This document shows, one piece after another, positions 2,304 through 30,671 of a DNA stretch of 64,000 nucleotides. A model generated the notes under the pieces. That model made no database searches. It worked only from the letters and a program-made list of their open reading frames with translations, and was not told where the DNA came from. The DNA comes from a virus (Duplodnaviria > Caudoviricetes): positions 3,162 to 67,161 of the IMG/VR virus record IMGVR_UViG_3300014205_000224, one strand, 5' to 3'. How positions within the stretch are numbered: position 1 is the first letter of the stretch; the number at the start of each line of letters is the position of its first letter. The translations under genes were made by a program, and so were the position numbers.

Positions 2304-3890
2304 CTACCACAGTGCCTCCCTGAACCATCCCGGTACCATCCTCGGGCTCTCCCCTATGGCCATACCTATCTGTTCATCCAGCAGGTAACTCTTGCACCTG
2401 TCCTCCGCGTTCCTCATCCCCCTGCCACAGCCCTGTACCACTGCCAGCAACATGCTCGCCCTGTACCACAGCTGTCCCATCCTCCCCGAACCATACAACC
2501 TGGCAGCGACCCTCTTGTCATTCAGGCTGAGGAACGGAGCCTTGAGCCAGATGATGAAGCGACATAAGTCATCATCCAGGCTGATCCCCCGCTCAAATGA
2601 AGGACTGACCAGTACTAGAGGTTCCCTGCTTGCCTTGAACCTGTCCAGCACCTCCTGCCTGTCCTGTCCGTTCTGATGCGTGATCAGCCTCCTGTCCCCC
2701 ATGCGCATGACCTCTCTGGCAAAGGCATAGGAAACCGTGTGTATCAGTCCCTTCTCGTTCAAGTGTTCAGGCTTACTCATTATTTCCTCTACCTTATCCA
2801 GTCCCTTCTTCAGCTCCACGTCCTTCGTCTTGTAAGATATGTTGCAAACGCCCATATTTTCGATTTGACGGCTTTTGGCCGGGAAAATGGATGGATATGC
2901 CTTATAGGCTATTTGGCCCTCTTCCAGGGCAACCTCGCGAGCCAGAACCGGTAAGAATGGAAACGTCCCAGACATCAAAACGAACCTATCGGCATGCCGC
3001 CAGAAAAATTCATCAGCCATTTTCTTCGGAAGCCAAGTCGGGCTGAAGGATACAGTCAATCTTCCCTTGTCCTCGTCCTCAAACCGCTCATATACCCAAC
3101 TATCATCCACGTACTCAACGAACATTTTCAGCTTCATCAGCAAGCCACCGACCCTCTTCTGCAACTTCACCTGTCCCGCCTGCAACTCGCTGTTGATGAA
3201 TTCCAGGTGCTCCACCTCGCTACTGACCTCCCTGTAAATCTTGTCCAGCTTCATTATCGCTCTGTCCGCCCAGTCCTTCCAACCTTCAACCGCCTCCTTA
3301 GCCTTGGCATTCTTGAACTTCGGTATATGGATCTTGAACTGCCTCAACTGATGTTCCGCCAGCGTAATCCCGACAAACCCATCCAGCACGCTCTCCAGGG
3401 AATCCGCCTCGTCCACAATGATCAACTCTCTCCCGCTGAACCGTCCCACATAGTTTGCCTCTGTCATGAAGTAGTGGTAGTTCAGCACAGCCACCGGAGC
3501 AGCCAGTGCAATTTCTTTCGCCTTGTGATACGGGCAGGTCTTGTTTATCTTATTCTCGCACGGGTGCATCTTGCTGTGCATGCACATGTCAGCGGTCAGT
3601 TCAGGGTTCGCCAGGCAGGTGTAATTGTCCCGTCCCCACATGATCGGTATCTCGGGGAAGTCATGGGCAAGCTGAAGCTGCAAACTCTTACTATGAACCA
3701 AATACACCGCCTTGCCACTCATGGCCCCCAGGCACGCACCAACCAGGCTCTTACCTATTCCCGGAGGAGCCTCAACCACCGTATACTTCTTATGCGTCCC
3801 GTTCGCAAACTCCACCATGTCCTCCTGGTGCTCCCTGAAGTCCCTCTCCACAAAGTTCCTATATCTTCCCTTGGCTTCATTCGGTGTCAT
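2304..3890 (-). CDS. DinG/XPD-like SF2 ATP-dependent DNA helicase
   Basis: Walker A APPGIGKS, DEAD motif, MSGT, FERGISL and QGCGRGMR motifs; Cys-rich segment; start refined to MTPNE. Confidence 0.9.
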   Translation of the reverse strand: MTPNEAKGRYRNFVERDFREHQEDMVEFANGTHKKYTVVEAPPGIGKSLVGACLGAMSGKAVYLVHSKSLQLQLAHDFPEIPIMWGRDNYTCLANPELTADMCMHSKMHPCENKINKTCPYHKAKEIALAAPVAVLNYHYFMTEANYVGRFSGRELIIVDEADSLESVLDGFVGITLAEHQLRQFKIHIPKFKNAKAKEAVEGWKDWADRAIMKLDKIYREVSSEVEHLEFINSELQAGQVKLQKRVGGLLMKLKMFVEYVDDSWVYERFEDEDKGRLTVSFSPTWLPKKMADEFFWRHADRFVLMSGTFPFLPVLAREVALEEGQIAYKAYPSIFPAKSRQIENMGVCNISYKTKDVELKKGLDKVEEIMSKPEHLNEKGLIHTVSYAFAREVMRMGDRRLITHQNGQDRQEVLDRFKASREPLVLVSPSFERGISLDDDLCRFIIWLKAPFLSLNDKRVAARLYGSGRMGQLWYRASMLLAVVQGCGRGMRNAEDRCKSYLLDEQIGMAIGESPRMVPGWFREALW

Positions 3891-27214: not shown

Positions 27215-27329
27215 GCGATTAAAGTATATCTGACGACACGCCTAGCCTTACTTAATCCAGGAATACCCGAGGGCTCCTGTGTTAAAATAATCAGGGAAGA
27301 CGACTACCGCTCCCAGGAAGGAACCAAAT

Positions 27330-28304
27330 ATGGCGAAGAAGAAAGCACCCAAGGCCAATGCCTATGGAATGGAGGCATACGCGGAAGAACAGGAGAGAAT
27401 AGCAGAGGAATTGCACAAGGAGATGTACACGGGGACAAACGATGACGGGGCTAACCCTCCGCTCGAACCCTCCGAAGATACCCCTCCTGTAGACGATCCC
27501 GAAGATACTCCGCCTGAACCTACCGAACCCAAACCGGAACCGCCCGTTGATGATTTCAAGCACAAGTACGAGGTTCTGCAAGGGAAATACAATACTGAAG
27601 TTGCTCGAATGGGCATGGAGTTGAGTGAGGTCCTTGAAAGGGAAGCGGCGTTACAGGGAGAGCTGGACAAGTACAAGAAAACCACGAAGCCTGACGAACC
27701 CTTGACCCGTGACGATACATTTGATGGAGATGAGGATGTTCAGCTTGTTAAGGAAGACTACCCCTCTCTCTACAGTGCGTTCACCAAGATAGCCAAGAAG
27801 ACAGCCGCTGATGTAGTTGGAGAGGTTGTCAAAAAGGTTGACACAGTTGAAACCCACGTCGTAGCCATGAACCGCAATGATTATTGGCAAGCGCTTGATA
27901 CGGCCATGGCAGACTGGAGGGAGATAAACCACAACCCGGAATTCTCATTGTGGCTGAAGGAAAAGGAGAAATACACAGGGGTACCGAAGGAAGTCCTCCT
28001 TGGCAATGCATTCAATACCTTCGACGTAGCCAAGACCCTGGAGTTCTTCAAAGACTTCAAGGCAACAAAGGGACCGGCTCCCGCACCGGCGGCAAGTGAA
28101 GAAGAGGAAGAAGAGGACATCGCTCCTCCCACTTCAAAAGGTGGCGTTCCTCCCCCGGCCAGTAGACAGACGAATCTCATCAAGCGCAGCGAGATAGCGG
28201 AGTTCTATAAAAAACGACAACGGGGCGCGTTCTCAGATGAAGACGCTGCGAAGATAGAAGCCAAATTCATCAGAGCAATACAAGAAGGGCGCGTCGTGAA
28301 TTAA
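27330..28304 (+). CDS. Capsid scaffolding/assembly protein
   Basis: Acidic Pro-rich N-terminus, FKHKYEVLQGKYNTE coiled coil, position directly upstream of the capsid gene. Confidence 0.75.
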   Translation: MAKKKAPKANAYGMEAYAEEQERIAEELHKEMYTGTNDDGANPPLEPSEDTPPVDDPEDTPPEPTEPKPEPPVDDFKHKYEVLQGKYNTEVARMGMELSEVLEREAALQGELDKYKKTTKPDEPLTRDDTFDGDEDVQLVKEDYPSLYSAFTKIAKKTAADVVGEVVKKVDTVETHVVAMNRNDYWQALDTAMADWREINHNPEFSLWLKEKEKYTGVPKEVLLGNAFNTFDVAKTLEFFKDFKATKGPAPAPAASEEEEEEDIAPPTSKGGVPPPASRQTNLIKRSEIAEFYKKRQRGAFSDEDAAKIEAKFIRAIQEGRVVN

Positions 28305-28316
28305 AAGGAGGTTACT

Positions 28317-28392
28317 ATGAGTGTAAACAGAATCACTGGACATCCTGATTATACAGCTGCTGGGACAAGTAAGTTCATCCCGGAAATATGGT
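28317..28392 (+). CDS. Major capsid protein, exon 1 (MSVNRITGHPDYTAAGTSKFIPEIW + t)
   Basis: AAGGAGG RBS; FIPEIW capsid N-terminal motif; in-frame stop follows unless spliced. Confidence 0.85.
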
Positions 28393-28978
28393 GGTAGTAG
28401 ACTGGCCATATTAAAACCCGCTCTGAATAACTGGAATCGGACGTAAGGTGCCGAAATCAGAGGGAACACACAGTACAACATCGCAGTTCGGAGGAATCCA
28501 TGAAGCGACCAAGTTGGAAATACATGGCAGGATTAGTTGACGGAGAAGGATGCATAGACATGCAAGGAAATGTAGACAAAAGGGATGGAAAGTATTATTG
28601 TAGGCCAAGGCTGAGAATAACCCTTTCTGGAATCCCTGGAGAAATGATGGTTCCTGTGTTTATAGCAAACTTCGGAGGCAGTAAGGAAATGAAACAGGGA
28701 ACGGCAGTCTGGAAAGATGCTTATACATGGACCCTGACAGGCAAGCAGCACCTCCGCAACTTCCTACAGAACATCGTCAACCATTTGGTTATCAAGAAAG
28801 AACAGGCACGATTAGCGATATGGTGGTTGGATAACCTTTTGGGCAAGCACGTCACTGAAGAAGTAAGACGCTTGGGAACAGACGAACTGAAGGCCATGAA
28901 GTGTGACCCGCACAGACTAAGTGAGAGGGCAGTCGAGAGACTGAAACGATAGTCGGGTTCTCTAATACAGGGAAATTG
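28393..28978 (+). mobile_element. Group I self-splicing intron in the major capsid gene
   Basis: 5' exon ends in U; P1 AATATGGT/GCCATATT with U.G wobble; P7 halves GACTA/TAGTC; terminal G; splicing restores IWSGKL in frame. Confidence 0.9.
28500..28952 (+). CDS. LAGLIDADG homing endonuclease (intron-encoded)
   Basis: YMAGLVDGEGCI single motif. Confidence 0.9.
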   Translation: MKRPSWKYMAGLVDGEGCIDMQGNVDKRDGKYYCRPRLRITLSGIPGEMMVPVFIANFGGSKEMKQGTAVWKDAYTWTLTGKQHLRNFLQNIVNHLVIKKEQARLAIWWLDNLLGKHVTEEVRRLGTDELKAMKCDPHRLSERAVERLKR

Positions 28979-29829
28979 CAGGCAAACTCCAGGTTAAATA
29001 CTACAAGACTACTGTCTGGACGGCAATCAGCAATACGGACTATCAGGGTGAGATCGGAAACGTAGGCGACAAGGTCTATATCCGCACTATCCCGACAGTC
29101 ACGATTAACGATTACGCCAAAGGACAGAAACTTAATTATGAACGCTTGGAGCAGGCGGATGTCGAGCTAACCATAGACAATGCTAAGTATTTTGCATGTG
29201 CAGTTGATGACATCGACGCCTACCAGGCCGACATTAAACTCATGAACATGTTCGCGGATGATGCAGCCGAGCAGATGAAGATCACGATTGATTCGGCTAT
29301 CCTCGAGGGTGTTATTACTGACGTTGACTCAGCCAATAAGGGCACTGCTGCGGGAGAAATCTCCGGTGGATTCAACCTTGGCGGATCGGCAGCGGCTGTT
29401 CAGATCACAAAGGGTAACGTCCTGGATTACATCGTGGACTGCGGTACGGTTCTCGATGAGCAGAATGTTCCCGAGAGCGGCAGGTGGATGGTTATCCCGT
29501 CCTGGATCGCCGGTATGATCAAGAAGTCCGACCTGAAGGACGCCAGTCTGACTGGTGACGGTTCCAGCGTTCTCCGTAATGGCCGAATCGGAATGATCGA
29601 CAGGTTCACCCTTTATCTCTCAAACAACATTCATACCGATACGGATACCTGGACCTGCTACAACGTCCTGTTCGGTACGAAAGCGGCAATCACTTATGCC
29701 TCCCAGATCACCAAGGTATCGTCCCTCGAATCAGAGACGACCTTCGGCCAGCTGATCAGGGGTCTTAACGTGTACGGCTACAAGGTCATTAAGCCGGAAG
29801 CCCTTGGCTTGCTGTATTGCCACAAATAA
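28979..29829 (+). CDS. Major capsid protein, exon 2 (spliced product about 308 aa)
   Basis: GKLQVKYY...NTDYQGEI...GDKVYI, VDDID, LDEQNVPESGRW, GRIGMIDRF, VYGYKVIKPEA. Confidence 0.9.
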
Positions 29830-29847
29830 CGAAAGGAGGTACAACAT

Positions 29848-30279
29848 ATGGCTACTCAGGATCTTACAGGAGGGACCCACGTTGCTGGTGGGATCGCCTA
29901 TGATGGAATAACCAAGTTTTGGGTCGCGGAAAGTACGGTGGACCTGGCTGGAGAGACTATTGCAGACAATGATGCAGTACAGTGTCTCGATATTCTCGCC
30001 GGAACCCATGTTCTTAATGTGTTCGTGGAGGTTGTTACCGCTGTTGGTGCAACTTGTACGGCAACTGTAGGTGATGGTAATGGCACGGCTTCTTGGGATG
30101 CTTCAGCGGATCTCAACGCCGCTGCTGGCACAATTACCCAGGGAAGAGGCGGAACCGACGCCTATGTTACGCAGGGCGGAGTAACTTACTCGTCAGCTGA
30201 CACCATTGATCTTTCATTCCAGGATGCCGCAACATCCGGGAAGTTTACGGTATCGGCACTGTGTGTTAAGGTTAGCTAG
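29848..30279 (+). CDS. Probable capsid decoration / minor head protein
   Basis: Beta-sandwich-like composition; directly after the capsid gene. Confidence 0.6.
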   Translation: MATQDLTGGTHVAGGIAYDGITKFWVAESTVDLAGETIADNDAVQCLDILAGTHVLNVFVEVVTAVGATCTATVGDGNGTASWDASADLNAAAGTITQGRGGTDAYVTQGGVTYSSADTIDLSFQDAATSGKFTVSALCVKVS

Positions 30280-30296
30280 CCGGAAGGAGGCAAACT

Positions 30297-30671
30297 ATGA
30301 GCAGATTTGAAGACAGACAGTTTGGCCAGTTGGAGATACAGGGTATCGCTGACTATGTTGGTGGCCAGGATGTCACTGTGCTTATGAAAGACTCCGCCGG
30401 AAACGTCCTTATGTGCACCGGGACCAGTACTCCTACTGGGTCAGGATACGCTAAGGGGTGCTTGCTGATTGTATCTGCTATTGGAACAGGCACTAGTGGT
30501 CTGTACCATAATACTGGAGACACCTCAACAGCATCATTCACGGTTGTTGCCAGCACGTCTGGCAGCTCTGGCAGCTCGGGAAGCTCGGGCTCCTCCGGTT
30601 CTTCTGGAACCACTGGCGCGGCTGGGTCGTCCGGTTCGTCCGGTACATCCGGTTCTTCTGGAACCTCATAA
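30297..30671 (+). CDS. Probable head-associated protein with a C-terminal (GSS/GTS)12 tail
   Basis: 12 G-X-Y triplets at 30561-30668 ending at the stop codon. Confidence 0.75.
   Translation: MSRFEDRQFGQLEIQGIADYVGGQDVTVLMKDSAGNVLMCTGTSTPTGSGYAKGCLLIVSAIGTGTSGLYHNTGDTSTASFTVVASTSGSSGSSGSSGSSGSSGTTGAAGSSGSSGTSGSSGTS

Follow-up and report, generated by a model that had tools for sequence, protein, structure and literature searches.

A probable mobile group I intron in the major capsid gene of an environmental phage, and the insertion sites of its relatives

Organization of the capsid locus

The DNA analyzed here (the window) is a stretch of 64,000 nucleotides (nt) from the 67-kb IMG/VR virus record IMGVR_UViG_3300014205_000224, a metagenome contig with an estimated completeness of 82%. 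Within it, a major capsid gene is divided into two exons by an insertion that carries an open reading frame (ORF) for a LAGLIDADG homing endonuclease, and this insertion, at 28393-28978, is very probably a mobile group I intron. The parts of the split gene are as follows.

28305-28311, plus strand: Shine-Dalgarno sequence AAGGAGG of the capsid gene, 5 nt ahead of the ATG at 28317
28317-28392, plus strand: capsid exon 1, encoding MSVNRITGHPDYTAAGTSKFIPEIW and ending with T, the first base of a Ser codon; the N-terminus agrees with that of an intronless relative, L005
28393-28978, plus strand: group I intron of 586 nt, its junction set by homology and its core by covariation
28395-28400, plus strand: stop codons TAG TAG in the frame of exon 1, within the P1 loop, from frame translation
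28979-29829, plus strand: capsid exon 2, in which CA finishes the Ser codon and GKLQVKYY... follows, 282 amino acids and a stop; Pfam Phage_capsid_4

Exon 1 ends with ...ATA TGG T at 28392, and the frame from the ATG at 28317 reads MSVNRITGHPDYTAAGTSKFIPEIWW before it meets the two stop codons. Exon 2 begins with CA GGC AAA CTC; its frame has been open since 28966, reads ...AGKLQVKYYKTTVWTAISNTDYQGE..., and is closed by the stop codon at 29827-29829. Joining the 76 nt and 851 nt of the exons gives 308 codons plus a stop, and the joined protein of 308 amino acids reads FIPEIW-S-GKLQVKYY. The sole junction that gives back W-S-G is TGG T/CA GGC, between T28392 and C28979. Because no other junction restores TGG-TCA-GGC, the intron is assigned to 28393-28978. 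The base before the 5′ splice site is thereby U, and the last base of the intron is G28978.

The same motif is found without interruption in relatives. FIPE[IV]WSGKL is unbroken in more than 70 intronless relatives among the 80 closest IMG/VR loci. One of them, L005, reads ...DYTASGTSKFIPELWSGQLQVKWY and nearly matches the two pieces of the window when these are joined. At the DNA level, the intronless alleles follow the consensus TTcATcCCn GAaaTnTGGT/CnGGcAAgcT, a well conserved target block, and are identical to the spliced junction of the window at up to 41 of 48 bases; the intronless junction sequence is ...GGAAATATGGT/CAGGCAAACTCC.... Exon 2 also shares 47% identity with the protein annotated as major capsid protein in Rhizobium phage RHph_TM3_14A, in which the motif is again uninterrupted (N-terminus ...AAGFIPEIWSGKLIEKFYAATVLAAISNTDYEGE). 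Judged by these similarities and by the Pfam match, the gene encodes a major capsid protein of the P22-coat-like, Phage_capsid_4 kind. The ORF list of the window calls only a piece of 227 amino acids for it (29146-29829, from TTG at 29146), and that list gives no start codon for exon 2 ahead of 29146. The original prediction, made from the letters and the ORF list, had named the gene as a major capsid gene, had seen that the ORF track misses the split gene apart from the 227-residue fragment, and had joined the exons in frame into the same 308-residue protein; all of this is borne out, and its exon and intron coordinates are exact to the base.

The ribozyme core and its covariation

The following elements of the intron were located.

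28385-28392, plus strand: P1 5′ strand AATATGGT, pairing with 28405-28412 in 8 base pairs, with U28392.G28405 at the 5′ splice site
28402-28404, plus strand: P10 guide CTG, which can pair with CAG at 28979-28981, where exon 2 begins
28405-28412, plus strand: internal guide sequence, i.e., P1 3′ strand GCCATATT, pairing with the end of exon 1
28417-28423, plus strand: P3 5′ strand CCCGCTC, pairing with 28923-28929 with one G.A mismatch (28420/28926)
28424-28430, plus strand: J3/4 TGAATAA, 7 nt, near-invariant in alignment A1 (below)
28431-28460, plus strand: P4 (28431-28434/28457-28460) and P5 (28437-28440/28451-28454) with a GUAA cap; both helices are recovered in the minimum free energy (MFE) fold
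28462-28471, plus strand: P6 5′ strand GGG AA CACAC, pairing with 28901-28909
28901-28909, plus strand: P6 3′ strand GTGTG A CCC, by covariation count
28913-28919, plus strand: P7 5′ strand, consisting of C28913, bulged A28914 and GACTA (28915-28919), by covariation count
28923-28929, plus strand: P3 3′ strand GAGAGGG; the crossing of P3 and P7 is a pseudoknot
28930-28943, plus strand: P8 hairpin of CAGTC, GAGA loop and GACTG, by the MFE fold and the covariation of P8 in relatives
28944-28949, plus strand: J8/7 AAACGA, which is ATGCGA or ATGCTA in relatives and resembles Rfam consensus AAGAUAUAGUC
28950-28955, plus strand: P7 3′ strand TAGTCG, by covariation count
28958-28974, plus strand: P9 hairpin of TTCTC, loop TAATACA and GGGAA, by the MFE fold; every relative has a different hairpin here
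28978, plus strand: terminal guanosine (omega-G), with the 3′ splice site directly after it

This architecture is compact. P2 is absent, four A's lie between P1 and P3, and P4 and P5 are separated by an AA/AA internal loop (J4/5 and J5/4). P8 alone sits between P3′ and P7′, and for this reason the intron is not of the IA type. The features of group I are found throughout: U.G in P1, omega-G, a P4-P6 and P3-P7-P8 core with the pseudoknot, a G-C pair of P7 beside a bulge, and P10. The bulged A28914 falls in a column that is A in the A1 consensus, and G28915-C28954 is, from the sequence, the presumed guanosine-binding pair. An R-like stretch, GCACAGACUAAGUG, resembles Rfam consensus UUCAaAGACUA, and an S-like stretch, AAACGAUAGUCGG, resembles AAGAUAUAGUC.

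The evidence for these helices comes from an alignment (A1) of 31 non-redundant homologous introns from viral contigs, with the structure derived from the window. In the pair count, P7 and P10 were given their own bracket types, P7 because it crosses P3; P5 and P9 were excluded from the column counts since their hairpin lengths vary, and they were inspected sequence by sequence. Standard pairs were present in 94.7% of 1296 cells. Shuffling lowered this value to 80.3%, and sliding of the 3′ partners by 1-3 columns lowered it to 37-45%. Changes on both sides occurred in 25 of 42 pairs, and the cells with a both-side change numbered 156, against 33 expected. None of 500 shuffles equalled the observed value on any measure.

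P1 is paired in 86% of cells, with both-side changes in six of eight pairs and U.G at the splice site in all 31 introns, and its pairs track the exon: ATCCCT/GGGGAT, TTGCCT/GGGCAA and CACGCCT/GGGCGTG in relatives and AATATGGT/GCCATATT in the window. P10 is fully paired (100%) and compensatory in all three pairs; the pair is swapped, with CAG/CTG in L112 and L191 versus CTG/CAG in the window and L169. Compensatory changes are also found in six of seven pairs of P3 (99.5% paired) and five of six pairs of P8 (97.8%), and P4 is paired in 100%. In P6 (87.9%), GGG/CCC at the proximal end never varies, and compensatory changes occur in the distal pairs (CACAC/GTGTG, CGGC/GCCG, CTCG/CGAG and CTTT/AAAG). 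P7 is 100% paired; its G-C pair is invariant (31/31), and GACTA/TAGTC is replaced by GACTG/CAGTC in four sequences. P5 and P9 are hairpins whose sequence and length differ from member to member. The group I reading of the original prediction is thus supported by a covarying core, and the individual pairings that it had drawn, namely P1 with its U.G wobble, CTG with CAG in P10, and the P7 halves GACTA (28915-28919) and TAGTC (28950-28954), are all present and all covary. A group II intron was considered and rejected: both the size and the covarying helices fit group I.

The endonuclease reading frame

28490-28494, plus strand: Shine-Dalgarno sequence GGAGG of the endonuclease ORF, 5 nt ahead of the ATG at 28500
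28500-28952, plus strand: ORF of a LAGLIDADG homing endonuclease of 150 amino acids with a single motif; it matches PF00961 and I-MsoI, and its homologues lie in homologous introns

The ORF is intact, and its motif, MAGLVDGEG, begins at residue 9. It matches Pfam PF00961 (LAGLIDADG_1) with E 1.2e-4, and its best matches in the structural database are I-CreI, I-MsoI and I-CvuI; I-MsoI is aligned over residues 7-107 with E 7e-5, and the other two are weaker. The LAGLIDADG assignment made at the outset therefore stands. Its size, its single motif and its relatives suggest, by analogy, that the protein would form a homodimer and cleave DNA at a specific site. Seven homologues from viral contigs have 53-72% identity, and all seven lie within homologous inserts in capsid genes. 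A tblastn search of 50,697 isolate phage records gave at best 35% identity over about 70% of the length. The stretch before the ATG is conserved in the relatives, with the consensus CGCAGTTC followed by purine-rich sequence.

The ORF is placed in the P6 loop, and its last 17 or so codons (..KCDPHRLSERAVERLKR and the stop) double as P6′, J6/7, P7, P3′, P8 and J8/7; the stop codon TAG falls in P7′. Since these codons are also ribozyme core, the residues DPHRLSE are strongly conserved among the homologues, which is a case of dual coding. In seven relatives (L092, L117, L120, L130, L176, L205 and L091), the ORF is about 40 residues longer and contains Cys-x2-Cys...His stretches with a zinc-finger-like look. 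This extension is encoded in an enlarged P8, and the capsid genes of these relatives read ..GTY[IT]P/EIW.

The presence of an endonuclease ORF between two pieces of a gene, and nothing more, would also agree with two arrangements that involve no intron: a free-standing endonuclease gene that leaves the capsid gene as two parts, each translated separately, or an intein. The first is contradicted by the lack of a start codon of exon 2 ahead of 29146, and the second is ruled out by the stop codons in the exon frames, which separate the ORF from both exons. Moreover, the flanks of the ORF form a covarying group I core. It is hardly credible that the locus is of either kind.

Proposed splicing and homing

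For the group I intron, the following course of events can be proposed. P1 would form in the late transcript by pairing of the last bases of exon 1 with the internal guide sequence, which puts U28392.G28405 at the cleavage site. The compact P3-P9 core would bind free guanosine at G28915-C28954 of P7, and the guanosine would attack after U28392. Then, G28978 would occupy the guanosine site, P10 (CUG with CAG) would align exon 2, and the exons would be ligated into ...GAAATATGGT-CAGGCAAAC..., the mRNA for the 308-residue capsid protein with ...FIPEIW-S-GKLQ.... The two in-frame stops right after the 5′ splice site would halt ribosomes ahead of the ribozyme, which fits the accepted idea that ribosomes are stopped before they unfold the core. 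The endonuclease may be made from its own ribosome-binding site and, by analogy with I-CreI and I-MsoI, act as a homodimer. It might cut intronless capsid alleles of related co-infecting phages, and repair would copy the intron into them, as in homing of known introns.

The autonomy of this splicing deserves consideration. The same intron could depend on its LAGLIDADG protein as a maturase, or on a host factor, with capsid output tied to translation of the ORF in the former case. The core is indeed minimal, with P2 and peripheral domains absent, a 4-bp P4 and a short P5, the ORF is interwoven with its 3′ half, and LAGLIDADG maturases are established in fungal mitochondria. However, the GNRA loops on P5 (GUAA) and P8 (GAGA) could give tertiary contacts, and to our knowledge the phage group I introns studied to date self-splice in vitro. 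Dependence on a maturase or host factor is unlikely in our estimation, and self-splicing is preferred.

Several points weigh against a functional group I intron and its endonuclease. The sequence comes from a metagenome contig. The window retains every counted pair except G.A (28420/28926) in P3. An ORF-deleted window construct folds with no more favourable energy than shuffled sequence does (z = -0.8), so that folding energy by itself speaks neither for nor against the structure; the unconstrained MFE fold of this construct yields P1, P4, P5, P6, P7, P8 and P9. The Pfam score of the endonuclease is barely over its cut-off (23.3 versus 23.1 bits). Finally, the Rfam group I model RF00028 has no match in the whole window at the gathering score (50 bits), nor at E ≤ 10 in 28200-29200 or in the 5′ or 3′ half taken separately; Rfam gave chance matches only, one to a snoRNA and one to a CRISPR repeat, each with E > 4.

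A covariance-model search had been suggested as a check in the original prediction, and since RF00028 gave nothing, the proof had to rest on comparative covariation. The model also misses the homologous ORF-bearing introns of L085, L088, L132 and L154, yet it scores an ORF-less intron in a further relative (L185, below). For this reason, the failure is read as a lack of sensitivity of the model, which some 430 nt in the P6 loop and the missing P2 would explain, and not as evidence against group I.

The mismatch in P3 and the metagenomic origin, with 82% estimated completeness, are also what could be expected of a decaying intron that no longer splices, in which case the capsid gene would be a pseudogene of a defective phage or the product of a chimeric assembly. 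Against this, the two exons and the endonuclease ORF run uninterrupted over their full length, the remaining pairs of the core are intact, and P1 and P10 fit the local exons exactly. The capsid is also essential, and no second copy of its gene is seen among the surrounding ORFs. A dead copy is very improbable.

A family of related introns

Homologous introns were sought by a pattern scan for P4-P5-P4′-P6 (AACTGGRA, 4-34 bases, CAGAGGGAAC). The pattern matches at least 120 viral contig stretches, and the matching 3′ half (GACCCGCA..GACTR, then the P3 complement) gives 72 matches with 59 distinct sequences among the matches listed. The host capsid genes fall into two subfamilies, that of the window with ...WSGKL..KFY..NTDYEGE and a second with ...WSDE[IV]IAAYKKNLV..GKKGD. 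Both splice sites could be fixed via the restored protein motif in 47 introns. In all 47, whatever the insertion site, the exon 1 frame meets a stop 1-3 codons past the 5′ splice site, and this is the third codon in 43 of them.

A blastn search of 27300-30300 against 50,697 phage records returned weak capsid-gene matches to four Rhizobium phages and none to the intron; by this search and that with the endonuclease, the family has no member among the cultured phages of that collection. The pattern scan of bacterial and archaeal genomes gave mostly chance matches; three of the matches listed are clear members, namely L226 (a contig of a Smithella metagenome-assembled genome, MAG), L255 (a Pyrinomonadaceae MAG contig) and L296. 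No description of this intron family or of a hotspot at FIPEIWS was found in the searchable literature, which is absence of evidence only. The intron of the window belongs to a large family, apparently undescribed, that has been seen to date in environmental phages only.

Insertion sites in the capsid gene

The family is aimed at a single hotspot in the capsid gene, FIP-EIW-S, but the 47 introns are not all inserted at the same place in it. In 41 of them the intron lies at site A, within FIP/E (CCT/...G/GAR). Site B, in W-(T/CN), is 10 nt downstream of A and is occupied in the window and in L112, L169, L170, L191 and L202, following the rule TGGT/...G/CNG. The same 5′ end as at site B is also seen in L122, L147 and L211. 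In a tree of the endonucleases (IQ-TREE), the window stands beside site-A introns of its own capsid subfamily (L085, L088, L086 and L089; best identity 72%). The other site-B introns fall within a clade of the WSDE subfamily with 100/97 support, beside the site-A introns L105, L121 and L173. Strongly supported branches of the tree force at least two changes of site, and the place of the window beside site-A introns suggests that its insertion site has shifted.

How such a shift came about is harder to say. The 5′ guide module of the window, GGTAGTAGACTGGCCATATT, is closest to that of the other site-B introns, TGTCGTAACTGGCCAAAG. Because likeness of guides is mostly dictated by pairing with the shared exon, convergence and exchange of modules are indistinguishable here. 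The move by 10 nt could have occurred via reverse splicing, imprecise repair, or recombination across conserved core blocks. With somewhat less than even confidence, we propose that one lineage of introns and endonucleases has settled in several registers, all of them no more than about 11 nt apart at one conserved motif (site A in FIP/EIW, a site C in EI T/GG and site B in W T/CA), and that the window represents a second independent move from A to B. If this were true, a single endonuclease target could serve ribozymes inserted in different registers, the P1 and P10 guide modules would be re-fitted or exchanged by recombination, and the FIPEIWS codons would attract introns in the way of the hotspots known from rRNA genes.

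Additional introns were seen in the capsid genes of relatives. In L154 (3300-4900), two introns seemingly flank a micro-exon of 3 nt, GGT. Exon 1 ends with ...GAA ATC T at 3365, and the first intron belongs to this family with a LAGLIDADG ORF of the 150-residue class. The second has a site-B-like 5′ end, TGTCGTAATAACGAAAGGCCAA, and a LAGLIDADG ORF of about 250 amino acids, probably of the two-motif type. The last exon begins with CA GAT GAA at about 4877, and the joined TGG TCA GAT GAA encodes WSDE. Further introns are found 20-25 nt or so downstream, at ..EKF/Y, in L132 (8881-9800), in L090 past the EKF codons, and in L013 (1912-3001). The second intron of L132 shares the P4-P6 pattern, and the insert of L013, of about 1.07 kb, contains an open frame of 338 amino acids with the LAGLIDADG motif YVAGFLDSDG. 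Since relatives carry these additional ..EKF/Y introns, the conserved N-terminal block of the capsid gene is a hotspot with several insertion sites. Farther down the capsid gene, L185 (6480-6750) has an ORF-less, IA-like group I intron (RF00028, 81 bits) with an insert after GACUA, where P7.1 and P7.2 would be. L128 has a similar break at the same position (TDYEG/) with no Rfam match.

As for neighbouring genes, an ORF of 324 amino acids at 27330-28304 of the window lies directly upstream of the capsid gene. It has no Pfam match, and its N-terminus is acidic and rich in Pro and Glu; judged by its position, it probably encodes the scaffolding protein. In L132, Rfam identified four tandem tRNA genes (2647-2954), which precede the capsid gene by about 5 kb.

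Implications

The intron has a direct consequence for annotation. Gene callers report only the 227-residue capsid fragment here, and dozens of related viral contigs are affected likewise. Because split capsid genes are missed in this way, capsid-based classification and protein clustering are corrupted. The junction rules of sites A and B permit such annotations to be repaired. As the sequence is read here, production of the most abundant virion protein would depend on the folding of a ribozyme. An endonuclease directed against a near-invariant block of capsid codons could, by analogy, act in competition between co-infecting phages; another intron endonuclease was shown to do so in phage PhiPA3 (PMC11620839). 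With many members, at least three adjacent registers and covarying helices, the family is a natural data set on the change of insertion sites. This data set and the correction of annotations are the main value of the present analysis.

Comparison with known systems

Group I introns in capsid genes are already known as a kind, and the window does not reveal a new mechanism. The original prediction had regarded such an intron as unusual, and this was overstated: capsid-gene introns have been published for mycobacteriophage LittleE and lactococcal phage Tuc2009 (PMC3706429) and for crAss-like phages (PMC7886860). In LittleE (Cluster J), splicing was demonstrated by reverse transcription PCR and by N-terminal sequencing across the junction (PMC3706429). 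As in the window, the intron lies in the major capsid gene, U ends exon 1, G ends the intron, and an I-CreI-like LAGLIDADG ORF is present. However, about 820 bases are spliced out, the endonuclease is encoded on the other strand and has some 50 HNH-like residues at its C-terminus, the capsid gene and the position are different, and the authors call the intron "most likely group I" (PMC3706429). For Tuc2009, a group I intron of the capsid gene is cited in the same paper, and in crAss-like Delta and Zeta phages the capsid genes have up to three intron-type inserts, some of them with LAGLIDADG domains (PMC7886860). These cases share with the window the placement of group I introns in the major capsid gene, whereas the capsid families and hosts are different and the crAss-like introns were deduced from protein domains only (PMC7886860).

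Other comparisons concern single properties. The introns of T4 td, nrdB and nrdD (sunY) likewise belong to group I, occur in a phage, and have an endonuclease ORF that loops out from the core. In T4, too, in-frame stop codons closely follow the 5′ splice site. These introns differ in that they lie in genes of nucleotide metabolism, encode GIY-YIG or HNH endonucleases, and are of the IA type with P7.1 and P7.2. In its protein, the intron of the window resembles the I-CreI intron of the Chlamydomonas chloroplast 23S rRNA gene and to the I-MsoI and I-CvuI introns, which encode single-motif, homodimeric LAGLIDADG enzymes of about 150-170 amino acids. Their host genes are organellar rRNA genes, in contrast to the phage capsid gene of the window, and the similarity between the proteins is weak (best E 7e-5), with the size and the single motif in common.

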